From positions 3,126-67,125 of the forward strand of contig JACRHH010000018.1 in assembly GCA_016212095.1 (NCBI GenBank): DNA of 64,000 nt, in the 5' to 3' direction. The position numbers and the translations under genes were made by a program. A model generated the notes under the pieces. It saw only the letters and a list, made by a program, of their open reading frames with translations, was not told the origin of the DNA and did not search any database. This document shows, piece after piece, positions 8,958-22,368 of the stretch (position 1 is its first letter; every line of letters starts with the position of its first letter). This DNA is from Nitrospirota bacterium. GTDB taxonomy: Bacteria; Nitrospirota; Thermodesulfovibrionia; SZUA-242.

Positions 8958-9057
8958 GGGGGGATGTTATTCTGATTTGCATGCGAAGCCTTCCGGATTT
9001 GAATCAAGCCCTGTAAGGGCGGAATAATAATGTTGACCGGGGCGCAAGCCCGGTTAT

Positions 9058-9336
9058 TCATCTGCTAATTGGAATAACGCCGTTTCGCATACGCAAATCG
9101 TCCAGGAGTTCTGACGGCACTTTATCGTGGGTTTTGTGGACGATTATCCGCAGGTCGCTCGAAACCCGCACAGACCAGAAGTTTTTATCCCTGGCATTGT
9201 CGGGCTTGTGGAACCGCATTCCCGAGCTGGCCGGGTTAAGTTGCAGATCGAAGGCGGTGGTCTTTGTGGCCTTCTGCTCGTCGCCGGTAAGTTTGGCGAG
9301 GCTGTCGGTGAAGGTGTCGGAGATGCGGAAGTTCAT
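9058..9336 (-). CDS. Small protein (93 aa) of unknown function; C-terminal half RelE/ParE-like by eye
   Basis: MNFRISDTFTDSLAKLTGDEQKATKTTAFDLQLNPASSGMRFHK...FWSVRVSSDLRIIVHKT; first ~43 codons duplicated at 10708-10842; no strong ribosome-binding site. Confidence 0.4.
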   Translation of the reverse strand: MNFRISDTFTDSLAKLTGDEQKATKTTAFDLQLNPASSGMRFHKPDNARDKNFWSVRVSSDLRIIVHKTHDKVPSELLDDLRMRNGVIPISR

Positions 9337-9373
9337 GTCATCGTTTTTCGAACTGATGATTTTGAAATAATTG

Positions 9374-10564
9374 TTACTGCATCCAATCGTCACCAGGCAT
9401 GATTCGATGCATAAACTCATCGAACATAGGGACTGTGAATATTGTATCGCCATGATGGGGACTCCAAACCATGCCTTTGGAGATTAACTGGCTTCTGGTC
9501 GGACCGAGAGAAGTTACTTCACGTCCCAGCTTTTCAGCAATGCCTCCTGACCGATGCGGTCCGGGGCCAAGTTCAGCCATCGCACGGAGGTATATTTTCT
9601 CTGAGGGGGTGAGTCTATCAAACCTTACACGAAAGAAACTTTCATCGAGTGCGGCTATGGCGGAGGCTGACGCGTTTTTAACGTCCTCTTCTGTGATTGG
9701 CGACGCTTCCGCTGCATCCCACGAATGCTTGCCCCATTCCTGCACAAAATAAGGGTAGCCGCGCGTCTCTTTCACAATGAGGTCTAATGCTTCAGGGGTC
9801 ACTTCGACACCCTGATCTTTCGCCGGTTTCGCAATGGCCAGTTTTGTCGATTCCGGAGTAAGCGGCCCGATATCGGGAAAGTCGAACAGCCGTTCCGCAT
9901 AAGATTTCGCTCGACCCATCCGGCCCCTCAATTGCGGTAATCCAGCACCCACGAGAACGACAGGAAGACGGCGCTGGGCGGTACGATGCAGTGAGGTGAT
10001 GAGGGCCGCGAGCTCTTCCTCCCTTACATACTGTAACTCATCAGCAAAGATCACCAAGGCCGTGCCTGCTGCTTGCGCAGCTGCTCCGGCAGCCTCCAGC
10101 AACGCCTGCAGATCATGCTCCAGATCACCGTTGTCTGCCAGTCCAGGCTCAGGATCAAAGTCAAATCCCACCTCGATGTCTTCATATTTCACTTTGAGTG
10201 ACTTGGCGAATCCCGCCAGTGCCCTGAGCGCCCTCTGGGCAAGACTCTTGGCTTTCTCATTCCGTGAAAGCCTGAGCAGTGCCTGGCGTAACTGGGGAGA
10301 TAGGAGTGCCGGTAATGAACGATTTTCAGGAGCCTCTACCCGCAATGTCTGAATGCCGGTTCCTTCCGCATCATCTCTCATTCGATCCAGCAATACTGTT
10401 TTACCTACGCCTCGAAGTCCTACCATCAGGATACTCTTTGTGGGCAGACCTCGCCGCACGCGTTCGATGGCCACGCGGACAGTTTCCCGCACATCATCCC
10501 GGCCGGCGAGTTCTGGCGGCGGCGTACCCGCACCAGGAGCAAAAGGGTTTGTTATGGGATCCAT
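9374..10564 (-). CDS. AAA+ ATPase (ORC1/Cdc6-like)
   Basis: Walker A GLRGVGKT, Walker B VIFADELQ, 396 aa. Confidence 0.65.
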   Translation of the reverse strand: MDPITNPFAPGAGTPPPELAGRDDVRETVRVAIERVRRGLPTKSILMVGLRGVGKTVLLDRMRDDAEGTGIQTLRVEAPENRSLPALLSPQLRQALLRLSRNEKAKSLAQRALRALAGFAKSLKVKYEDIEVGFDFDPEPGLADNGDLEHDLQALLEAAGAAAQAAGTALVIFADELQYVREEELAALITSLHRTAQRRLPVVLVGAGLPQLRGRMGRAKSYAERLFDFPDIGPLTPESTKLAIAKPAKDQGVEVTPEALDLIVKETRGYPYFVQEWGKHSWDAAEASPITEEDVKNASASAIAALDESFFRVRFDRLTPSEKIYLRAMAELGPGPHRSGGIAEKLGREVTSLGPTRSQLISKGMVWSPHHGDTIFTVPMFDEFMHRIMPGDDWMQ

Positions 10565-10707
10565 CGAAGAATTATACCAAAATTAGCAAGTTTATAAAAC
10601 AAACATAAACCTGATAAATTTACTCAAATTAAACCCGCCTGATTTTGTTCAATAAAATGATACCCTAAAAACCTTCATCACCTCATCCCCCCCAATGAGT
10701 TATTTAC

Positions 10708-10842
10708 TCATCGGTAGAACCGCATTCCCGGACTGGCCGGGTTCAGTTGCAGATAGAAGGCGGTGGTCTTTGCGGCCTTCTGCTCGTCGCCGGTCAGTTT
10801 GACGAGGCTGTCGGTGAAGGTGTCGGAGATGCGGAAGTTCAT
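10708..10842 (-). pseudogene. Truncated paralog fragment of the 9058-9336 gene (first 44 codons then stop)
   Basis: About 130 bp nearly identical to 9199-9336 starting exactly at the ATG; followed by a relic resembling the 3' end of the methyltransferase gene. Confidence 0.45.
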
Positions 10843-10861
10843 GTGACAGCCAAGCAGCAAG

Positions 10862-11698
10862 TTACTCAGCCAATACTGGCTGTTGTGGATCGGCACCGAG
10901 GCTGATGTGATCCAGACGCCACTTCTTCAACGCCTTCGATTGGCGATAACTCATGGCTTCCTCGGAAATTACATCAACGTATCGAAGTTCTATTCCCTGC
11001 CAGTTGCCTGTTTCAGCGTTAAACAGCCTTGCCCTGAAAGCTTGTTCGATTTCAGCTTGCGCTTGATTGGCGGCGGCTTCCGCAGCATAAAAATCAGGCT
11101 CGGTCGTATGAAGGAGCGTTACGTCAAGCACATAAACATCATCAAGTCCTTCGTGGCATATCTCTTGCCCCTCGTCAACATCGAAAAATACAGCGGTAAT
11201 CATTTTGCCATGCGGTTTTACGGCTTTGGCAATCTTGTCTGATAACTTTGCGGCACTCAAGCGACGCTCAAATTCGTTCGGGAATGCAGATCGACGGTAT
11301 CGTGATGCCAGCCAAAGTTGAAAAGTAACAAGTTCCGAAGGAGAAAGCCGGGAATCATTATCTGGTGTAAAGTCTATGAGCGACTCTTTGAGAATGCTGC
11401 GTTTTTCTGCGGAAACAAATTCAGCCAGCAACGGCTTGTTGCCTTCGAACTCCAAATGGAGCGTCCGTGGCGATTTCGCATGTGTATTCAGGCCATTAAG
11501 TTTCTGAATCCGATACCCAACAATTACCTCTACATGTGGTTCCCTATCTGGGAGTTGGGTTAAATCGCAGTGATGAGTTGCAACGATAACCACCGTATCG
11601 CCGGGATGTGTCGGATGTATCAGACCAAGTGCTGCTACAGATTCACTTGCAAGCAAATGTCCTTGCCGCCATGGCGTATCCCTCGTCCATTCCGGCAT
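10862..11698 (-). CDS. Hypothetical protein, 278 aa, no recognisable motifs
   Basis: Long ORF co-directional with neighbours; visibly AT-richer than flanking genes. Confidence 0.45.
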   Translation of the reverse strand: MPEWTRDTPWRQGHLLASESVAALGLIHPTHPGDTVVIVATHHCDLTQLPDREPHVEVIVGYRIQKLNGLNTHAKSPRTLHLEFEGNKPLLAEFVSAEKRSILKESLIDFTPDNDSRLSPSELVTFQLWLASRYRRSAFPNEFERRLSAAKLSDKIAKAVKPHGKMITAVFFDVDEGQEICHEGLDDVYVLDVTLLHTTEPDFYAAEAAANQAQAEIEQAFRARLFNAETGNWQGIELRYVDVISEEAMSYRQSKALKKWRLDHISLGADPQQPVLAE

Positions 11699-11703
11699 GG
11701 CGG

Positions 11704-12378
11704 CTACTGCACCACGTCGTTTTCTGCCATCAGATCGGAATCGGCAGAGCTTTGAGACATTTTACGGTTGGCAAAACGCGCATCAAGGCGTTCTCTTTGA
11801 CTTGTCTCCTGTTCGACAATCTGGCGGAGTAACTGCGCGGCATCACGGGCCGATCCACCATCTTGAATCATCTCGAAAATATTCCTGCCATTGAATACCT
11901 TGCGTTTCAATAGAGCCCCATTAACCGGAATTCCTGCTTCGGCAAACATGTCAGCCGCAACTGCAAGTTCGCTCATCTTGGCTAAATGCTCGGGTGTGGG
12001 TTGCTCCCCCCTCAACCAGTTGTAAATTGTCTGGCGTGATACGTTAAAGGCCTTGGCGAGATCGGATATAGCAGGGGAAAGGACTTTGCGAATTTGCTCC
12101 ATGTCCTCGGCAGGTGTTCTTGCGGATACTGCCTTTACAGCGTTAGAACGTATGAAACCGGATGATAGTAACTCATTATTTCGATGAAGCTGCAACCGGC
12201 CAAGATCGTCTGCAAAAGCACCCGTTCCTTGGGCAACCAGCAATCCAGCCGTAAATAAAGCAACCTTTGACAAGCTGCATACACATGAAGAAGCGCCAGT
12301 TGAATATGGTCGATCATTAAACCATCCACCTTGCCTGGAATATCCCGCTTCCATTCTGTAATCTCCTGTTATTCCCAT
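11704..12378 (-). CDS. XRE-family helix-turn-helix protein (true start possibly the ATG at 12102, giving 133 aa)
   Basis: HTH segment LSPAISDLAKAFNVSRQTIYNWLRG; the upstream part of the ORF may be non-coding. Confidence 0.5.
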   Translation of the reverse strand: MGITGDYRMEAGYSRQGGWFNDRPYSTGASSCVCSLSKVALFTAGLLVAQGTGAFADDLGRLQLHRNNELLSSGFIRSNAVKAVSARTPAEDMEQIRKVLSPAISDLAKAFNVSRQTIYNWLRGEQPTPEHLAKMSELAVAADMFAEAGIPVNGALLKRKVFNGRNIFEMIQDGGSARDAAQLLRQIVEQETSQRERLDARFANRKMSQSSADSDLMAENDVVQ

Positions 12379-13163
12379 GAATTAAGGGCAAATTGCGTGA
12401 CTGTTGCCCGAAACGATTTCTCGATTTCAACGTGAAGCGCAACCAGTCTGGAAGCAATTGTTTCAAGGCTGAAGGCCTCGCGTTGTGCATAAAATGCATC
12501 GGAATCAATTATTGCGTGACGGCCTTCCTGCGCGGTAAATCGTGGATGTATCTGCGGTGCAAACGGAATTATTTCCTGTGGCAGTCCGACCCGGCCATCT
12601 TGAATAATTACCCGCGATACAAGTTGTCCACTTGCGTTAATAGTGACTGTTTCACTGTATGTATGTGCCAGTTTGCCGTCAAGCTTATGCGAAAGCCCTA
12701 ACACTTCTTGTGCAAGGTAGTCAGAAAACGACTCATCGGGTTTTGGCAGCACGGCATCAAAATAACGCAGCCCAACACGCTCGGTAAAATCAAGTCGCAC
12801 AACGTCATGAATAGTGCCCAATCCATCCAGCAGCGTCTTGAAAAACGTCTCGGAAGTGTCATAATCGGTTGTCTGAAGAGCCAGCGCGTTATGTTCCAGA
12901 ACAAACTCTGTGGTGCGATTAATATTTCCGAAAACGCAACGAGCCTGAGGAATGAATGACGGTTTTGGGGCCTGACTTCCGTCACTTGGCGAGCCAAATT
13001 GCAAGACGATTTTTTGAATTGTTTCCTGTTTAAAATCCGGAAAGTGTGCAGCCCTCATCCGTTCCTGAATGGTTGGCAAATACCCCTCCATTTGAAGAAC
13101 AGGATTGAACTGAACTTGTGCCACAGTAAAGTAGACCGGCGCGTTTTTCATTTTCTTGCCCAT
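12369..13163 (-). CDS. Hypothetical protein, 264 aa (tentatively TIGR04255-like)
   Basis: ATG with GGAGG ribosome-binding site; N-terminus MGKKMKNAPVYFTVAQVQFNP; family assignment is from memory only. Confidence 0.45.
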   Translation of the reverse strand: MGKKMKNAPVYFTVAQVQFNPVLQMEGYLPTIQERMRAAHFPDFKQETIQKIVLQFGSPSDGSQAPKPSFIPQARCVFGNINRTTEFVLEHNALALQTTDYDTSETFFKTLLDGLGTIHDVVRLDFTERVGLRYFDAVLPKPDESFSDYLAQEVLGLSHKLDGKLAHTYSETVTINASGQLVSRVIIQDGRVGLPQEIIPFAPQIHPRFTAQEGRHAIIDSDAFYAQREAFSLETIASRLVALHVEIEKSFRATVTQFALNSWE

Positions 13164-13182
13164 AATAGTCCTCCACTACAGC

Positions 13183-13223
13183 GGTTTACACTGAGGTTTA
13201 CACTTTACACCCAAGTTGACACT
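13183..13223. promoter_or_regulatory. Iterated direct repeats TT(T/G)ACAC upstream of the 264-aa gene
   Basis: GGTTTACACT at 13183-13192 and 13195-13204, TTTACAC 13204-13210, TTGACACT 13216-13223, just upstream of the ribosome-binding site on the minus strand. Confidence 0.3.
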
Positions 13224-13270
13224 ATTGCAAACAATGAACATCCACACCGTTGATGCGCCTCAAATTCCAG

Positions 13271-16057
13271 TTACACCCGAAACACCTTCATAACCTCATC
13301 CCCCAAATGATTAATCACCTTCACCGCAATCCGCCCGGTTTTCGGCTTTTCAAATGGTCGCGATGTGTCGCTATTCAGCGTAGCCCAGGCGTCTTCGTTG
13401 ATCTCGGCTTTGAGAGTGGTTTTCAGCGCCTTGTACGGGTCGTTTGCTCCAAGGAAGTAGGCGTGGCGGACGAAGAAGCTTTCTTCATTATAATCTGTGT
13501 CGATGAACCAGCAGGCTATTCCTTCGGCGCCGTCGCTGCGGACTTCGCCGGTGTTGGGGTGGAACACGTCCACGCCGTTGACTTTGACCCGCACTTGTCC
13601 GTCTTCGGCATCGAGAATATCAATATCCGGCTCGCCGAAGATGACGAAGAGGTTGCCCTTGCCGGTGTTCTTGAGGTCGTCTGCCATGTGTAGGTCGGCG
13701 TTCATGCGAGCCTTGAGCACGGGGATGCGGCCAAGTTTGTTGAATTCCGACGAATGGGCGTCGTAGTTGAAGGCGCAGGTGATCAGCGCGTCGAAACCGG
13801 CGTCGCCGGCCTCGCGGGCGGCGGCCACCAGATCGGGGCGGGAGACTGTGCCGAATTCGGGGCCGATGAAGATGGCGGCGCGTTTTTCACCGCCAGCATC
13901 CGCAAAGCGTCCTTCGGCGCAGATAAGATAGCCCGGCCAAGGGGTTAGCGCTGTGAAGATGACTTTATCTTCCTTGTGCGCCTGTTGAACCCCGGCTGTC
14001 TTGAGGTTTTCCAGAATCATCTGTACGAAGTTCCGCTCCGTGCCGTAGCCTTCCTTCGGTTCCGCCACGGTGTCGATCAATTCGTCGTCCACTCCCACAG
14101 CCAGAACCCGGTGCGGCAACAGGCTCTCCACGGTGAACGGCCCGGCAACGCGAACACTTTTCTTGTCGTCGTAGGGTTTATCGTAGAGATATTCAAACTC
14201 GGCCTTGGCGGCGATGGATGCGTCGATTGCCTTTTGCCGGGCGATGCGTTGCCGCCACCAGTCGGCGTGCAGCTTCTTCGCCGCCTCCGGCCATTTTTCG
14301 TCGGCCTCGCGGGGAATTTCCCACTCCTGCCAATTTTTACCGAGTGACTGGTTAAGCTGCTGGCGCAATGGCTCCAGCGTCTGTTGGAACTTTTCCCAGA
14401 TAACGTCGATTTCGGCGTTGTTGGCGATGGATTTTAGGGTGATGTGCGGCACGCGCTCATAAACAAAGCCCTGCCGGATGTCGCCACGAGTGGGCTGGGT
14501 CGACGGCAAGGTTCGGGTGATCTCGGCTTCCTTGCGTTGGCCGTCGGGCGAGTCAGCCAGCAGATAGAAAGGGTAGCGCGCTCCCATGATCCGGGCACGG
14601 GCCAGCGCCAAAGCAACGCGCGAGGTGTCGATGGTGATCCAGCGGCGGCCCCACTGTTCAGCTACATAAGCAGTAGTGCCTGAACCGCAGGTTGGGTCGA
14701 GAACCAAGTCGCCGGGGTCGGTCGCCAAAAGAATGCAGCGCGCAATGACCTTCTGGCCTGTTTGAACAACGTATGTCTTGTCCTCGGAAAATCCGGTCAT
14801 CTTTACGTCGTTCCAATAGTTTGCAATTGGAACAACTTCGAAGTCTTTCAAAAATCGTTTGTACATGAGAGATTTGCCAATTGGCCTTAAACGCCCAGTT
14901 TTCGCAAGCTGCGTCAGGCCCTTGGCATCGGTCTTAAACGTGCCCTTGCCAGGAGAAAAAGCTACACCGTTGTAGATAAAAGACGTGACGTCGGTTCCTT
15001 GTGCTGGTCGCTGGCTGGTCAAGTTGTCACAAGCAAAAACTTTCGTCTTATCTATGTTGCCGCCGTTTCCTTCTATCTCACTAGAATTAAGCCGTCGATC
15101 TACGCCATCGCCTTCATCAAACCAAGTGTATTGGGTAGTTCCCGCTTCGCCTAGGACTTTGAGTCGAAATGGTGGTCTAAATTTGAGTGCCGCACGATCT
15201 TTGGCAAACCAAAGGATGTAATCACTAATCGAAGCAAGGCCTTCTGTCGAGGTGCTGCTCGTTTTCTCGAATGAGATTTCTGACACAAAATTCTCCTCCC
15301 CAAACACCTCATCCATCACCGCCCTCACCCGATGAACATTCTCATCCCCAATCTGCACAAAGATCGACCCGGAATCCGTCAATAAATCCCGTGCCACAGT
15401 AAGACGGTCACGCAGATAAGTCAGATACGAATGAATCCCATCCCGCCAAGTATCGCGGAACGCCTTGACCTGTTCCGGCTCGCGGGTGATGTGGCCGACG
15501 TTGCCATCCTTCACGTCGCGGCTGGTGGTGCTCCACTGAAAGTTGGAGTTGAACTTGATGCCGTAGGGCGGATCAAAGTAGATGCACTGCACCTTGCCGC
15601 GCAGACCTTCGCGCTCGGCCAGCGATGCCATGACCTGGAGGCTGTCGCCAAGGATCATGCGGTTGGCCCAATGGGCGTCGTGCTGGTAAAACTCGGTCTT
15701 GGCGCTCTCGCTTGGGAGCCCGTTGAAGTCGGCGAAGAGGTCAGGCTGAACCTGCCTGCTCTTTTCCTCACGGGTTTGACGCAACAGGTCATCGATCAAC
15801 ACCTTGGGGTGAACCTTCTCCTGAATGTAGAGAGGCGGGGCATGGACTACCAGATCAGACCAATCCTTTTCGTCCTTGCCGCGCCAGACGAGCTGTGGGT
15901 CGAGGTCGCGGTTGCGGCGTTCGTAGGCAACTCGCACCGGGCTTTTGTCCGCATCGTGCATTATCGACTGATGCTCGGCGGTGGGAATGTTCTTGCGTGT
16001 CGCGTCCTCGTGGGTGAGGGTTTCGACGGTGAGTGGGGTAATTGGTCTGTTGGCCAT
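13271..16057 (-). CDS. DNA methyltransferase, beta-class (Type III Mod-like), 928 aa
   Basis: Motif IV IYFDPPYG precedes motif I DPTCGSGTT; NRMILGDSLQVMASL resembles the Mod N-terminal region; long C-terminal extension. Confidence 0.75.
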   Translation of the reverse strand: MANRPITPLTVETLTHEDATRKNIPTAEHQSIMHDADKSPVRVAYERRNRDLDPQLVWRGKDEKDWSDLVVHAPPLYIQEKVHPKVLIDDLLRQTREEKSRQVQPDLFADFNGLPSESAKTEFYQHDAHWANRMILGDSLQVMASLAEREGLRGKVQCIYFDPPYGIKFNSNFQWSTTSRDVKDGNVGHITREPEQVKAFRDTWRDGIHSYLTYLRDRLTVARDLLTDSGSIFVQIGDENVHRVRAVMDEVFGEENFVSEISFEKTSSTSTEGLASISDYILWFAKDRAALKFRPPFRLKVLGEAGTTQYTWFDEGDGVDRRLNSSEIEGNGGNIDKTKVFACDNLTSQRPAQGTDVTSFIYNGVAFSPGKGTFKTDAKGLTQLAKTGRLRPIGKSLMYKRFLKDFEVVPIANYWNDVKMTGFSEDKTYVVQTGQKVIARCILLATDPGDLVLDPTCGSGTTAYVAEQWGRRWITIDTSRVALALARARIMGARYPFYLLADSPDGQRKEAEITRTLPSTQPTRGDIRQGFVYERVPHITLKSIANNAEIDVIWEKFQQTLEPLRQQLNQSLGKNWQEWEIPREADEKWPEAAKKLHADWWRQRIARQKAIDASIAAKAEFEYLYDKPYDDKKSVRVAGPFTVESLLPHRVLAVGVDDELIDTVAEPKEGYGTERNFVQMILENLKTAGVQQAHKEDKVIFTALTPWPGYLICAEGRFADAGGEKRAAIFIGPEFGTVSRPDLVAAAREAGDAGFDALITCAFNYDAHSSEFNKLGRIPVLKARMNADLHMADDLKNTGKGNLFVIFGEPDIDILDAEDGQVRVKVNGVDVFHPNTGEVRSDGAEGIACWFIDTDYNEESFFVRHAYFLGANDPYKALKTTLKAEINEDAWATLNSDTSRPFEKPKTGRIAVKVINHLGDEVMKVFRV

Positions 16058-16058
16058 G

Positions 16059-17147
16059 CTATCGACTGCCTTCCATCATGGATTCCTTGGTCAAAATCGC
16101 ATTCAGCGCGAGGTTGATGTAGTAGTTTGTGCGCCCCTTTTTCTGCTTTTGGAGAAAGCCGCCCTGTGTCAAGGTGTCGAGATACTTGGTGGCGGTTAGC
16201 CGCGAAACTTTGAGATCACGTTCGACAAACTCGATTTTGGTGTAGGGGTGGGTAAAGAGGTTGTTGATCAAATCCTGACTGTAAAATTTGTATTGCGCAC
16301 GGATGCGGTGCTTGGCATCCATCAACGCTGCCTTGATGGCATGAATGGTTTCTATGGTATCGGTGGCGGTGGACTCTATGGCTGTGAGCATGTAAAGCGC
16401 CCACTCTTCCCAAGTGTTCTGTTCACGCACCGATTGCAGCAGGCGGTAATAGTCCGGCTTGGTGCGGACGATGTAGCGGCTGAGGTAGAGCACGGGAATG
16501 TCGAGCAGGCCTTCCTTGACCAGATAGAGGACGTTTATAATGCGCCCGGTGCGGCCATTGCCATCGTAGAACGGGTGAATGCTTTCAAACTGGTGATGGA
16601 TAAGCGCCATTTTGATGAGAGGGTCGGCTGCGAATAGCTCGCTATCGTTCATGAAGCGTTCCAGATCACGCATGAGTGCGACTATGGCTTCCGGTTCCTG
16701 CGGCGGTGTATAAACCGTCTGACCGGCGCCATTTTTTAGCGCAGTGCCTGGCAGCTTGCGGAATCCGGCGTTGTTCTGTTCCAGTTCGGCCTGTATCTGG
16801 ATGATGTGGTTGGCGGTGAGCAGTCCACTTCGGCGAACCTGTTCATACCCTACCCGCAGAGCCTGACGGTAGCGCAGCACCTCCTTGGCGGACGGGCTGG
16901 CCAGGTTTTCGGGAAAGAGATCATCCTGAAACAGCTCATCATGGGTGGTGACGATGTTCTCGATAGCGGAACTGTCCTTGGCCTCCTGCATACCAAGTGT
17001 GCTGATGAGAACGCCCTGATTGGGGATTGAAGCGGCCACCCCTTTGAGTTCGGCCAGTTTGCGGCTGGCTAATGTCAGCTTTTTGAGGATGGCTGGGGTA
17101 TCGAAGCGCTCGGTCGGCAGTTGTTCCAACGGCTGCATGGTGGTCAT
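16059..17147 (-). CDS. Fic/Doc-family protein
   Basis: Fic motif HPFYDGNGRTGR; 362 aa; sits between the res and mod genes. Confidence 0.8.
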   Translation of the reverse strand: MTTMQPLEQLPTERFDTPAILKKLTLASRKLAELKGVAASIPNQGVLISTLGMQEAKDSSAIENIVTTHDELFQDDLFPENLASPSAKEVLRYRQALRVGYEQVRRSGLLTANHIIQIQAELEQNNAGFRKLPGTALKNGAGQTVYTPPQEPEAIVALMRDLERFMNDSELFAADPLIKMALIHHQFESIHPFYDGNGRTGRIINVLYLVKEGLLDIPVLYLSRYIVRTKPDYYRLLQSVREQNTWEEWALYMLTAIESTATDTIETIHAIKAALMDAKHRIRAQYKFYSQDLINNLFTHPYTKIEFVERDLKVSRLTATKYLDTLTQGGFLQKQKKGRTNYYINLALNAILTKESMMEGSR

Positions 17148-17168
17148 TACCCCCCTCCTTCTTGAACA

Positions 17169-17202
17169 ATATGCATAGAAAAGAGACGTTTTCTATACAT
17201 AT
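17169..17202. promoter_or_regulatory. 14-bp-arm inverted repeat (operator-like) between res and fic
   Basis: ATATGCATAGAAAA-gagacg-TTTTCTATACATAT, one mismatch; lies just upstream of the fic ribosome-binding site. Confidence 0.4.
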
Positions 17203-17250
17203 TGCCTGCTTCATGTATACAACAGGGCAAAACAGTATGCATTACAGGTT

Positions 17251-20200
17251 TCATCGCAACTCTCCCCATTCCCCCTTCACGATATTTCCGATCATCTTGT
17301 CAAACTCCGCCGCTACCTTGGCATCGAAGTCGGACTCCATGCGGTAAACCTCGGTAAACTCGGCAAAGGCCCATCGGCCATAGCTTTTCAGGTTATTAAC
17401 GCCGGGAACCCAGTAGGTTTCCATGGTGGCCTTTTTCTCCTTGGCGTCCTCGCGGCGGTAGCCCTTGATCTCGACGATCAGGCGCAGCGGGTCATCTTCG
17501 CCATGTCCGTCGTCAACCAGAACGATGAAGTCGGGGATGTATTTCCGCGTTTCCGAGCCGTAACGGTATGGAACCTCAAGGCCAAGATTGTGATTTTTGA
17601 CGTAGGCTTTCACTTTGGGGTGCGCTTCGGCCACCCGGCAGAATTCGGCTTCCCAATCGCTGTCGAGGATAATCCAGTTGATCTGACAGCGGCGGGCGTC
17701 AGTCTCCCATCGATCCTTTTTGGATGTGTTAAAATTCACATGGATGGTGGAGCCGACGGGATTGTAGGGATCGAGTACCGCCTTAATGGGGCTTCCGCCG
17801 ATATGTTCACGGTTGATTCCCGCCATAATACGCTCGCAGGCCATGTCAGCAAGCATCTTGTATTTAAGCTGGGCCGGATATGTTTTCCCCGTGCAAACAA
17901 GGTAGTTATCAAGCCATTGTCTGGCAATGCGCTTTATCTGTCCGAATAGATGAAGCTGTGGTTCTCCGTTAGCATCACGCCACCTTGTCAAAAGAAGGTG
18001 TGAAGTTAATTCATAGACAACCTGTGAGTGTCTTATATCTCCCGTATGAACGAGGTTAAGATCAACCGATGCACCAATGATCCCGGAATTTCTGGTCTCT
18101 GTTGCACCAACCAGGTCGGGGGTCAACTCCATCACAGAGTCATCGTTGAACTTTGCGCTCAGCCGTTCCTCTGGAAGTTCGACGCGATAGCCTGCAACGC
18201 GGGGAAAGCGAATTTCGAGTGGATCTCGATCAGGTCGAACAGCCTTGACTTGAATGGTCTCGCGCGGAGGCTGAGGCGGCGCTATCACCGGCTTCGCGGT
18301 GAAGTCGAAGGGAATACCCAGCACATCGGCATATTCCACGTTGAACAGCCCTTCCTCATTCAGATCGTAAGACTGGCGGCGAAGCGCCCGGCCAATGACC
18401 TGCTCGCACAGAAGCTGAGTGCCGAAGGCGCGAACGCCCAAGACATGTGTCACGGTGCTGGCATCCCAACCCTCGGTAAGCATGGAGACAGAGACGACGC
18501 AGCGTATCGCTCCGCCCAACTGGCCGGGCTTGCCCACTGTATTCATAACCTCGCGGAGAAGAGTCACGTCATCGAGTTGTTTCCCTTGTTGCATTTCATC
18601 GGCGAGCTTTCCCCCGCGTTCTACGATCTCGCGGCGGAAGCGTTCAATCTCATCAGCAGCCATGCTGCGGAAGCTATCGTCGAGCGCTTCACCGGATTCG
18701 AGTTGCTCGCTGTCAATGAGTAGTGTGTTTGGACGAGCAAGCGGATTGCCGTGTTCATCGGTATTGCGGAACAACGGCAAACGGCCAAATTCGAGCTGGC
18801 TTGTGCCGTCCTTGTTCTGCCGTTGAAACCCGGAGATATAATCGTACACCAGCTTGGAGGTGGAGGTGTTATTGCAGACAATAATGAAACATGGCGGCAC
18901 CTTAATTCCACTCTGCTGCCAAAGGTTGTAAGTTTTTTCGTAATGCCCATAGAGCGCTTCCAGTGCGGTTTGCAATTGTGGCGGCAGGTCAAGCGGGTTC
19001 AGGGCCTCGGTCTTCCCGCGCCCCTTTTTCGGCATCTTTGTACGAATGTGTTCCCAGAGGTTGCGAAACATCGGCATTTCGCCGCCGGGGATGTTGTCGG
19101 CCACCGGCACGCGCGGGAGCTTTACGATGCCGCATTCGATGGCGTCCATAAGCGAAAAGTCGCTCATTGTCCAGGGGAACAGAGTTCCTTCGGCATAGCC
19201 GGAGCCGCTCAGGAAAAACGGGGTTGCCGACAAGTCGATTACGCGAGCAAGCCCAAGCGTCCGGTTTACGATTTCAATGCCTGAAATCCAGAGCCGGGCC
19301 GCTTCGTTGTTCTTTTCGGCTTCCTTCTTCTCGTCGCCGGTCAGGTTCTCATCTTTGGCGTTATGGTTTGGTTTCTCACGGTAGCAATGGTGCGCCTCGT
19401 CGTTCAACACCATGATGTTCTTCAACCCCATCAGGCCGGGCATCACCCGCTGAATCATCTGCCCTTCGGTTTCCAGTGTGTCAAGCTCCCCGCCGCCGCG
19501 CCCTTGCAGCAACAGGCGGCCACCCTTTGACAACTCCATCCGTTCGCGCAGCTTGAAGGCATGGTAATTGGTTATGACGATTTTTGCCTTTTGCAGTTCA
19601 TCCAGCATGTCGCCTGGTATAAGCTCCCGGCTTTGGTAGTAGCTGTCAGGATCGTTGGGCTGAAGCACCCGAAGCCTGTCGCGGATGGTCAAACCGGGGG
19701 TGACGACCAGAAATCCCCGCGTAAACCGCTTGCTGGTTGGCCGACGCACCGCATTTATGGTTTGCCACGCAATCAGCATCGCCATGACCGTGGTTTTGCC
19801 CGCGCCGGTAGCAAGTTTCAGCGCCAGACGCATCAACTCCGGGTTGGCGTCGTTGTTTGCGTTGGCCAGATGCTCAAGGAAGCGTTTCTTGTGTTTATCG
19901 ACATTTGGGGCAACTTCGGTAAGCCAGATGGCGGTTTCAACAGCCTCGATCTGACAAAAAAACGGACGGATGCCATTGAACTGATGATGTCGCCAATGCT
20001 TTAGCAATCGCTCTGTTTCCGGAGAAACATGCCAGTCTTTCGGATTTTTGAGGCTGCGCCACTGATCAACGTGTTGACGCAGTTCATTTATGATGGAAGT
20101 GGCATCATACTGCTGCCCCTCTGTTGAAAGCCCCAAACCTTCATCAAAGACGAAACGCGGCTGTTCAGCGGCAACCTTGCGCTTCTTCGGCTTGGGTATT

Positions 20201-20433
20201 GGCGTGATGAATTCAGCCCGGCGGCGTTTTTCGATGATCTGCTGGGTCGGCTGCCCTGATGAATCAAGCTCCCAATGGCGAAGCGGATACCCGTATGGGG
20301 AATTAAGGATCGGCTGTTCGAAAAAGCGGTTATTCATTGACAGGAGAGCCTCCCGGTTGCCAACAGGTATTTTTTCTGAAACATTCCGTGATTCCGGACA
20401 AAACGATGTTGAAGATTGCCGTTTTTCCCTCAT
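17251..20433 (-). CDS. Type III restriction enzyme Res-like subunit: SF2 helicase with C-terminal PD-(D/E)xK nuclease
   Basis: Motif I LATGAGKTT, motif II VLNDEAHH, motif VI QVIGRALRR, C-terminal PDFIVLV...LIVEIKG. Confidence 0.7.
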   Translation of the reverse strand: MREKRQSSTSFCPESRNVSEKIPVGNREALLSMNNRFFEQPILNSPYGYPLRHWELDSSGQPTQQIIEKRRRAEFITPIPKPKKRKVAAEQPRFVFDEGLGLSTEGQQYDATSIINELRQHVDQWRSLKNPKDWHVSPETERLLKHWRHHQFNGIRPFFCQIEAVETAIWLTEVAPNVDKHKKRFLEHLANANNDANPELMRLALKLATGAGKTTVMAMLIAWQTINAVRRPTSKRFTRGFLVVTPGLTIRDRLRVLQPNDPDSYYQSRELIPGDMLDELQKAKIVITNYHAFKLRERMELSKGGRLLLQGRGGGELDTLETEGQMIQRVMPGLMGLKNIMVLNDEAHHCYREKPNHNAKDENLTGDEKKEAEKNNEAARLWISGIEIVNRTLGLARVIDLSATPFFLSGSGYAEGTLFPWTMSDFSLMDAIECGIVKLPRVPVADNIPGGEMPMFRNLWEHIRTKMPKKGRGKTEALNPLDLPPQLQTALEALYGHYEKTYNLWQQSGIKVPPCFIIVCNNTSTSKLVYDYISGFQRQNKDGTSQLEFGRLPLFRNTDEHGNPLARPNTLLIDSEQLESGEALDDSFRSMAADEIERFRREIVERGGKLADEMQQGKQLDDVTLLREVMNTVGKPGQLGGAIRCVVSVSMLTEGWDASTVTHVLGVRAFGTQLLCEQVIGRALRRQSYDLNEEGLFNVEYADVLGIPFDFTAKPVIAPPQPPRETIQVKAVRPDRDPLEIRFPRVAGYRVELPEERLSAKFNDDSVMELTPDLVGATETRNSGIIGASVDLNLVHTGDIRHSQVVYELTSHLLLTRWRDANGEPQLHLFGQIKRIARQWLDNYLVCTGKTYPAQLKYKMLADMACERIMAGINREHIGGSPIKAVLDPYNPVGSTIHVNFNTSKKDRWETDARRCQINWIILDSDWEAEFCRVAEAHPKVKAYVKNHNLGLEVPYRYGSETRKYIPDFIVLVDDGHGEDDPLRLIVEIKGYRREDAKEKKATMETYWVPGVNNLKSYGRWAFAEFTEVYRMESDFDAKVAAEFDKMIGNIVKGEWGELR

Positions 20434-22283: not shown

Positions 22284-22368
22284 TGGTGCGAGGGGGGGGA
22301 CTCGAACCCCCACGGTGTTAGCCGCCAGATCCTAAGTCTGGTGCGTCTGCCAGTTCCGCCACTCTCGC
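22284..22368 (-). tRNA. tRNA-Leu (anticodon UAG), 85 nt
   Basis: Reverse complement reads GCGAGAGTGGCGGAA...CAGACTTAGGATCTG...long variable arm...GGGGGTTCGAGTCCCCC...CTCGCACCA with anticodon loop CUUAGGA and encoded CCA. Confidence 0.85.

Follow-up and report, generated by a model that had tools for sequence, protein, structure and literature searches.

A BPTD_3080-type Type III-like restriction-modification locus with a SoFic-related gene as exchangeable cargo

A 64,000-nt stretch of DNA from a Nitrospirota bacterium (the window; GenBank assembly GCA_016212095.1, contig JACRHH010000018.1, positions 3,126 to 67,125) contains three consecutive long minus-strand genes for a restriction-endonuclease-like protein (Res), a Fic protein and a DNA methyltransferase (Mod), which raise the question of which defence system they form and whether the Fic gene is a working part of it. 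Type III restriction-modification (R-M) systems recognise a short asymmetric site that is methylated on one strand, and they cleave DNA in an ATP-dependent manner ~25–27 bp from one of two inversely oriented unmodified sites, with Res dependent on Mod. The operon order mod then res is typical of these systems, not defining. An earlier note on this sequence had described a Type III-like system with an atypical order of genes, an unusually long Mod and an embedded Fic protein that may serve as a regulator or second effector. We find that the locus is an ordinary copy of a widespread, catalogued R-M family that carries a known anti-phage gene by a known embedding phenomenon. With a probability of roughly 70%, we read it as a BPTD_3080-type Type III-like R-M system in which Fic is independent cargo and a second-line effector.

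The three open reading frames (ORFs; Table 1) and their motifs, whose positions we checked by regular expression, were confirmed, and all domain matches have E-values far past chance. Res, 1060 aa from its first ATG, matches the NCBIfam model NF046055 ('BPTD_3080 family restriction endonuclease') with 1367 bits at a cut-off of 800; its residues 38–1039 cover profile positions 1–969 of 970 and thereby the full length of the model. Pfam assigns ResIII and a C-terminal RE_endonuc domain, and the motifs GAGKT (210–214), DEAH (345–348), SATP (402–405), QVIGRALR (678–685) and PD-x17-EIK (967–990) complete the composition of a Type III Res, a superfamily 2 (SF2) helicase-like ATPase with a C-terminal PD-(D/E)xK endonuclease. 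Comparison with PDB and Pfam revealed nothing past these known domains. The protein is 100% identical to an NCBI protein from a Nitrospirae metagenome-assembled genome (P0001, 1028 aa). Because P0001 and the Res homologues begin at MNNRFF, which corresponds to M33 of the window ORF, the true start of Res is probably M33 at position 20337.

Mod (928 aa) matches the PADLOC model MTase_III (PDLC03632) with 1448 bits over profile positions 73–983 of 983, as well as Pfam N6_N4_Mtase and the Type III Mods 6k0w and 4zcf in PDB. DPPY (162–165) lies ahead of DPTCGSG (454–460), so that Mod has the arrangement of a Type III beta-class N6A/N4C methyltransferase, with motif IV before motif I and a target-recognition domain (TRD) in between. 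The Type III-like pair proposed in the earlier note is borne out by these scores. The same note had named membership in BREX or DISARM and missing catalytic residues in the methyltransferase as possible objections; all catalytic motifs of Mod are intact, and PADLOC, run on Res, Fic, Mod and seven ORFs in their vicinity, gave no match to BREX, DISARM or Hma models. The ten ORFs yielded only REase_III, MTase_II/III, SoFic and weak mad1/mad2 matches. We rejected BREX, DISARM and Hma identity on these grounds, since the helicase of the family described below likewise matches only generic UvrD models, and we rejected MANTIS identity because no MANTIS component turned up and MANTIS/Gao_RL, with its four genes, is a different system.

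A scan of one genome per GTDB species returned at least 595 loci that encode a Res relative. We compared in detail the nearest 80 of these (L001–L080; Res 67–80% identical), which span Proteobacteria, Nitrospirota, Acidobacteriota, Planctomycetota, Chloroflexota, Firmicutes, Verrucomicrobiota and others. All 72 related loci that have both genes carry res ahead of mod on the same strand, and in each of them the alignment covers all 928 aa of the window Mod, family Mods being ~900–1000 aa long. Therefore, neither the order of the genes nor the length of Mod is atypical, as had been supposed; both are the family norm. The distance between res and mod is <160 bp in 26 of the 72 loci, which have no cargo, and 370–4660 bp in the other 46. 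This interval, slot 1, is occupied in about 60% of loci (42/70 to 46/72), and 94 of 103 cargo ORFs run in the same direction as the core genes. The cargo comprises (i) Fic, Bro-N/ORF6N, YhcG/DUF1016 nuclease (PADLOC PDC-S02) and Schlafen AlbA_2/HATPase_c_4 proteins, (ii) GmrSD-like (HEC-05), 23S-IVP four-helix, PIN, NYN and DUF1828 proteins, and (iii) AAA_21 with DUF4276 (HEC-01), IrrE-HTH with DUF4411, and PDC-S11.

Fic occupies slot 1 in five loci besides the window. The lineage of the window Fic recurs in three of them (L021, 78%; L049, 75%; L032, 67% identical), while the other two encode much more distant proteins (47% and 32%), which indicates that Fic was recruited to the slot more than once. 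The window lineage is also found outside the family. An Azotobacter chroococcum plasmid (L088, NZ_CP066312.1, 3812–13077) carries a Type I R-M system of the order hsdM-Fic-hsdS-Fic-PD-(D/E)XK nuclease-hsdR, with three embedded genes, the first Fic being 73% identical to that of the window; on other plasmids the lineage stands alone with no R-M genes nearby. The window fic shares the orientation of the core genes between which it lies, and other defence genes take its place in related loci. Fic is thus one of many alternative cargo genes and not a built-in part of the R-M system. Its embedding, as first described, stands; its membership in the system does not, with 26 of 72 loci free of cargo and others filled with different genes.

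The three closest relatives (L085, L086 and L087; Res 89% identical) carry cargo unlike that of the window: slot 1 is empty and a reverse transcriptase sits in the second slot in L085, and a 510-aa unknown protein fills slot 1 in L086 and L087. In a neighbour-joining tree of Res, which is star-like, cargo types are scattered and form no clades. The differing cargo of the closest relatives and this scatter show that cargo turnover is fast relative to core divergence; the tree alone neither proves nor excludes transfer of cassettes. As far as sequence comparison reaches, 67–80% Res identity across at least eight phyla, combined with the star-like tree, implies extensive horizontal spread of the unit. 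Among more divergent relatives, one from Rhizobium (52% identical) has the full layout with both slots filled, and a cyanobacterial one (45% identical) is a plain Res-Mod pair. The flanks vary among loci, with an integrase a few kb upstream in L083 and L085, and L086 located directly between housekeeping genes.

Embedded defence genes have been described for Hma, BREX, DISARM and Type I R-M systems, with 62.7% of Hma systems occupied and 96.7% of the genes co-oriented (bioRxiv 10.1101/2024.01.29.577857). The BPTD_3080 family resembles Hma in its occupancy of ~60–75% per slot, and it shares with this 'guilt by embedding' the co-oriented cargo and the common families HEC-01, HEC-05/GmrSD and PDC-S02. 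It differs in that the host is Type III-like and not listed in that preprint, that the cargo is confined to two defined slots and that duplicated ends of core genes are visible.

What, then, does the Fic protein contribute? It comprises 362 aa with the domains Fic_N (PF13784), Fic (PF02661) and a SoFic-like C-terminal winged helix (PF21248), matches PADLOC SoFic with 387 bits over residues 5–353, and matches the PDB SoFic entries 3eqx, 3zcn and 9tc4 at E ~1e-75. We defined SoFic motifs as HxFx(D/E)GNGRxxR for catalysis and (S/T)xxxE(G/N) for class II inhibition. The catalytic motif HPFYDGNGRTGR is intact at 191–202, and the auto-inhibitory helix, a check suggested in the earlier note, is present as SSAIEN at 59–64. 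SoFic is reported to be a single-gene defence in E. coli that protects against T5; its inhibition is intramolecular, in one case with a small antitoxin, and its toxicity is relieved by mutation or by antitoxin, EF-Tu being the AMPylation target in Shewanella (PMC12249575; bioRxiv 10.64898/2026.07.09.737422). The window Fic shares with SoFic of Shewanella and E. coli the three-domain architecture, the Fic motif with a class II inhibitory helix and, as in other SoFic genes, an upstream palindrome; it differs in being embedded between res and mod with a 1-nt gap and in having no AS1-like small downstream gene.

The palindrome in the res–fic spacer reads TGTATAGAAAAC-GTCTC-TTTTCTATGCA. In 4/4 orthologous cassettes (window, L021, L032 and L049), the pattern TGTATAGAAAA-N5-6-TTTTCTATrCA occurs 30–60 nt upstream of the fic start, within a spacer that is otherwise not conserved. 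In 1.59 Mb of loci sequence we found 5 sites, namely those ahead of fic in the window, L021 (7572), L032 (13126) and L049 (13216), plus one in L085 (13166). The palindrome is also present upstream of the SoFic genes on plasmids L088 (5914; embedded in the Type I system) and L089 (1909 and 1949; stand-alone), and the two distant Fic cargo genes (47% and 32% identity) do not have it. In L085, the 163-nt res–mod spacer (13082–13244) contains the palindrome and, after it, the final ~45 nt of fic with the ribosome-binding region of mod, directly ahead of mod. By this structure L085, with its 89%-identical Res, is a locus that lost fic through an internal deletion and kept the operator. We infer that the palindrome probably serves as an operator for SoFic autoregulation, to which the C-terminal winged helix would bind.

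These observations bear on a different role, in which Fic would be a C-protein-like controller whose winged helix binds the palindrome, sets the timing or level of mod and thereby acts indirectly on restriction. The recurrence of the palindrome in all four cassettes, the SoFic-like C-terminal winged helix-turn-helix, the deposition of 3eqx as 'Fic domain containing transcriptional regulator' and the coupling to mod are consistent with such a role: the fic stop codon TAG is separated by 1 base from the mod ATG, as already reported, the 3′ end of fic contains GGAAGG, a Shine-Dalgarno-like sequence ahead of mod, and L085 kept its operator directly before mod after losing fic. However, L085 functions, or at the least is maintained, in the absence of Fic; the slot is empty in 26 of 72 loci and holds unrelated genes in others; and the intact catalytic and inhibitory motifs argue for an enzymatic role. 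Moreover, since operator and Fic occur together in stand-alone genes and inside a Type I R-M system, the operator serves fic and not the R-M system of the window. We regard a controller as unlikely. Of the two roles initially suggested for Fic, regulator or second effector, the second effector is the better reading, and regulation limited to its own promoter is plausible.

The position of fic would also suit a PrrC-like guard, held inactive by the Mod/Res complex and freed when a phage anti-restriction protein disables the R-M system. PrrC embedded in EcoprrI is a precedent, cited in the embedding preprint (bioRxiv 10.1101/2024.01.29.577857), and the presence of three distinct Fic lineages in the same slot (67–78%, 47% and 32%), the embedding of the window lineage in a Type I system and the tight fic–mod coupling point in the same direction. 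Against this, SoFic in E. coli is reported to be a one-gene system whose inhibition is intramolecular, with a small antitoxin in one case (PMC12249575); genes of this type are also found where no R-M system is nearby, and a Fic–Mod contact is unsupported. We consider this arrangement quite improbable and retain independent cargo with a second-line effector function.

We then asked which part of Mod confers specificity. A conservation profile, calculated as identity to the window residue across 56 family Mods, separates catalytic blocks conserved at 86–98% from a hypervariable block at residues ~261–430 (17–49%) between motif IV and motif I, while the C-terminal ~430 aa are conserved at 64–95%. 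Judged by this profile, residues ~261–430 are the TRD, in the classical Type III position and as the only variable part of the protein. We rejected the C-terminal extension as TRD: it is conserved and hence not a specificity domain. A methylome-typed relative provides a point of reference. In locus L083 of Geopsychrobacter electrodiphilus DSM 16401, where mod lies at ~3,087,108–3,089,885 of ARWE01000001.1, Res is 80% and Mod 78% identical to the window proteins, and DPPY is kept. Four methyltransferases are reported for this genome, one of which is Type III (Blow et al. 2016; PMC4752239, S4 table). This sole Type III entry, M.Gel16401II (D888DRAFT_2937), methylates GGACCG as N4-methylcytosine (m4C) at 93% of sites and has Gel16401IIP as partner (PMC4752239). 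The L083 Mod is most likely M.Gel16401II. The two loci agree in gene order and Mod length; the window copy differs in its TRD, in carrying fic in slot 1 and in lacking an intact helicase. The window TRD is ~35–40% identical to that of the Geopsychrobacter Mod, so that the recognition site of the window enzyme should differ from GGACCG; its product may be either N6-methyladenine or m4C.

Downstream of mod, the family contains a third gene and a second slot, both of which the earlier note had missed; in the window the third gene is truncated. In annotated plasmid copies it is ~695 aa long and carries the PGAP name '3′-5′ exonuclease'. Its product is a UvrD-like superfamily 1 (SF1) helicase (Pfam UvrD-helicase, AAA_19 and UvrD_C) with a weak RelE/HigB-like signal in the N-terminal ~100 aa, and it matches only generic UvrD models in PADLOC. 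Examples are found at 13016–15109 in L081 and 18947–21019 in L085. Of ~57 loci whose sequence extends far enough, 43 have the helicase gene behind mod in the same orientation, at distances from 6 bp to 5.8 kb and often with start/stop overlap with mod. All-against-all clustering of the ORFs of 82 loci returned Res (81), Mod (72) and helicase (40) as the only broadly conserved families, all others being sporadic. For pairwise distances, the correlation between Res and helicase is r = 0.75 (Mantel p = 0.001), higher than the 0.53 between Res and Mod. The family layout is res, cargo slot 1, mod, cargo slot 2, UvrD-like helicase.

Slot 2 is occupied in 30 of 40 loci, with AAA and S8 subtilase pairs, ABC/AAA_21 ATPases, SNF2 and DEAD helicases, a GHKL ATPase and a reverse transcriptase. 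The pair of AAA ATPase and S8 subtilase recurs in five loci (e.g. L012, 10640–14150), and in L085 a 652-aa reverse transcriptase with a 307-aa partner spans 16044–18918. In the window, slot 2 reaches to ~9058 and holds two stacked cassettes. The first consists of three tightly packed genes for a TIGR04255-family protein, a helix-turn-helix (HTH) protein and a 278-aa protein without a family match. It has no homologues in the 80 related loci and is, by position, a candidate new defence system. The second encodes an AAA_16 ATPase that has no PADLOC match and a 53%-identical homologue between Mod and helicase in the Chloroflexi locus L060 (16550–17719). The G+C content over 9000–13000 of the window, the slot-2 cargo, is 48–52% against 55–58% around it.

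The boundaries of these cassettes are marked by duplicated ends of core genes. The window retains two 5′ copies of the helicase gene, at 10842–10711 (codons 1–44, then a stop) and at 9336–9130 (codons 1–69, 71% identical), while the body of the gene is absent from the whole 64-kb window. A 131-nt direct repeat (9208–9338/10714–10844; 94% identical) brackets the AAA_16 gene, and a further repeat, D4, at 10662–10691 is 90% identical to the mod 3′ end at 13275–13304. The same type of junction between helicase 5′ end and mod 3′ end exists in L005 (21956–22124) with other breakpoints and other cargo, and L016, L034 and L079 carry duplicated ends of Res or Mod. The bracketing repeat, the mod 3′ copy and the Mod-AAA_16-helicase order in L060 suggest that the AAA_16 cassette came with mod and helicase ends from another family locus, and as judged from these repeats it is stacked behind the resident TIGR04255-HTH-278-aa cassette. 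We infer that cargo is exchanged by recombination within conserved core-gene ends.

Table 1 Features of the locus and their coordinates in the window
Feature	Position	Strand	Basis and remarks
res, BPTD_3080-family restriction endonuclease	17251–20433	−	NF046055; Pfam ResIII/RE_endonuc
Operator-like palindrome	17172–17199		in the 103-nt res–fic spacer; part of the SoFic cassette
fic, SoFic-type class II Fic AMPylase (predicted)	16059–17147	−	slot-1 cargo
mod, beta-class Type III-like DNA methyltransferase	13271–16057	−	PADLOC MTase_III; Pfam N6_N4_Mtase; PDB 6k0w/4zcf
Mod target-recognition domain (predicted)	14768–15277	−	aa ~261–430; conservation profile over family Mods
Mod C-terminal extension	13274–14575	−	aa 495–928; conserved, not TRD
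Slot-2 three-gene cassette	10862–13163	−	TIGR04255-family 12369–13163; HTH 11704–12378; 278-aa protein 10862–11698
Helicase fragment A	10711–10842	−	codons 1–44, then stop; tblastn 59% to L081 helicase residues 1–44
30-nt copy of mod 3′ end	10662–10691	−	codons for GDEVMKVFRV; adjoins helicase fragment A
AAA_16/STAND-like ATPase, 396 aa	9374–10564	−	second slot-2 cassette; Pfam AAA_16 1e-18
Helicase fragment B	9058–9336	−	codons 1–69 (71% identical), then 23 unrelated codons and stop

Upstream of res by ~1.9 kb lies a tRNA-Leu gene (22284–22368), with DUF2064 and glycosyltransferase genes in between. We rejected tRNA-linked integration, as two unrelated genes separate this sole tRNA gene from res and it is not an obvious attachment site.

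The conserved helicase raises the possibility that the family is a three-component system in which the UvrD-like protein is obligatory. The window copy would then be a remnant in decay, capable of methylation at most. In favour are the conservation of the helicase, its shared orientation, its frequent overlap with mod and its co-evolution with Res, as well as its truncation amid scars in the window. Similarity of Res to EcoP15I Res was not detected, and Mod has an extra conserved region of ~430 aa for which a nuclease-like fold is predicted. Yet the Res, Fic and Mod ORFs of the window are intact with all motifs, approximately one quarter of the loci with enough downstream sequence show no helicase, and the divergent cyanobacterial relative manages as a plain Res-Mod pair. 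An obligatory helicase and a decaying window copy are doubtful, with the odds clearly against them though not long.

The extension of Mod, noted earlier as roughly 400 aa, is present, and its length is corrected here to about 430 aa (residues ~495–928). It has no sequence match in Pfam or PDB. An exhaustive search returned 5405 cluster representatives, many of them fragments; those that can be placed form the C-terminal end of Mods as long as ~1050 aa. An AlphaFold2 model reached a predicted local distance difference test (pLDDT) score of 77 from diverse representatives and 47 from a shallow alignment, and predicts a long helical hairpin, a restriction-endonuclease-like alpha/beta domain and a C-terminal beta-sandwich. 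Foldseek searches with this model gave weak matches, AspBHI and BamHI at E 0.04–0.09. We rejected a catalytic PD-(D/E)xK triad, as the wider alignment shows no conserved D...(D/E)xK set. On this model, the extension is probably a non-catalytic nuclease-like module, and we tentatively suggest that it may be a docking surface for Res or the helicase.

Comparison with the classical enzymes sets the limits of the Type III analogy. In EcoP1I, mod is first and res is translationally coupled to it (PMC3874151). The BPTD_3080 family resembles EcoP1I and EcoP15I in its two proteins, a beta-class Mod with the TRD between DPPY and FxGxG and an SF2 DEAH Res with PD-(D/E)xK. It differs in the order res then mod, in a Mod that is ~290 aa longer with a conserved C-terminal region, and usually in a third, helicase gene and in genes embedded between the subunits. 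The searchable literature holds nothing under 'BPTD_3080', and no account of a two-slot Type III-like system, of a UvrD-like third gene or of the recombination scars.

Several observations weigh against our reading of the locus as a functional Type III-like system with an independent SoFic-type effector. Res has no match to EcoP15I Res by phmmer or with a 19-sequence profile against PDB, and its matches to PADLOC REase_III are weak (E 3e-4 to 8e-3); the Type III mechanism is thus an extrapolation from the domain content. Restriction may also be impaired if the third core gene, truncated in the window, is required. The link between M.Gel16401II and the L083 Mod was drawn by elimination and locus-tag position, not by an accession match. 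Fic scores 361.8 bits against the NCBIfam SoFic equivalog NF046030, below the cut-off of 550; by sequence it is a close SoFic relative, not an equivalog by the NCBI threshold. Finally, the promoter scan gave no above-chance site in the res–fic spacer. This generic scan for promoters and terminators, which also gave a promoter-like site at 10598–10571 ahead of the AAA_16 gene, performed no better than on shuffled sequence.

At the stated probability, the locus would operate as follows. By analogy to Type III systems and to the methylome-typed homologue, Mod would recognise a short asymmetric site through its variable TRD and methylate one strand, and Res, recruited by Mod, would cut unmodified DNA in an ATP-dependent manner. 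By analogy to SoFic, Fic would be an auto-inhibited AMPylase and a second-line abortive-infection effector that arrests the infected cell by AMPylating host proteins. The fic and mod genes would be co-transcribed from the fic promoter/operator, from which mod would be read through, and the C-terminal winged helix of Fic probably represses the fic promoter.

For the locus itself, these results change little; the picture at the level of the family is more useful, and it is the two cargo slots, the co-evolving third gene and the scars, rather than the embedded Fic, that carry the interest. The conserved SoFic operator offers a testable handle on the control of SoFic expression. Tentatively, and at somewhat less than even odds, we view the BPTD_3080 family as a Res-Mod-helicase system, present in hundreds of species of many phyla, whose two gaps form a platform for the exchange of defence cassettes, the window being a fossil of their swapping and stacking. 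As a widespread two-slot scaffold, the family is a ready source of candidate defence genes via 'guilt by embedding', of which the TIGR04255-HTH-278-aa cassette is an example. The co-evolving helicase partner and the nuclease-like extension of Mod suggest that this 'Type III' family may work differently from EcoP15I.

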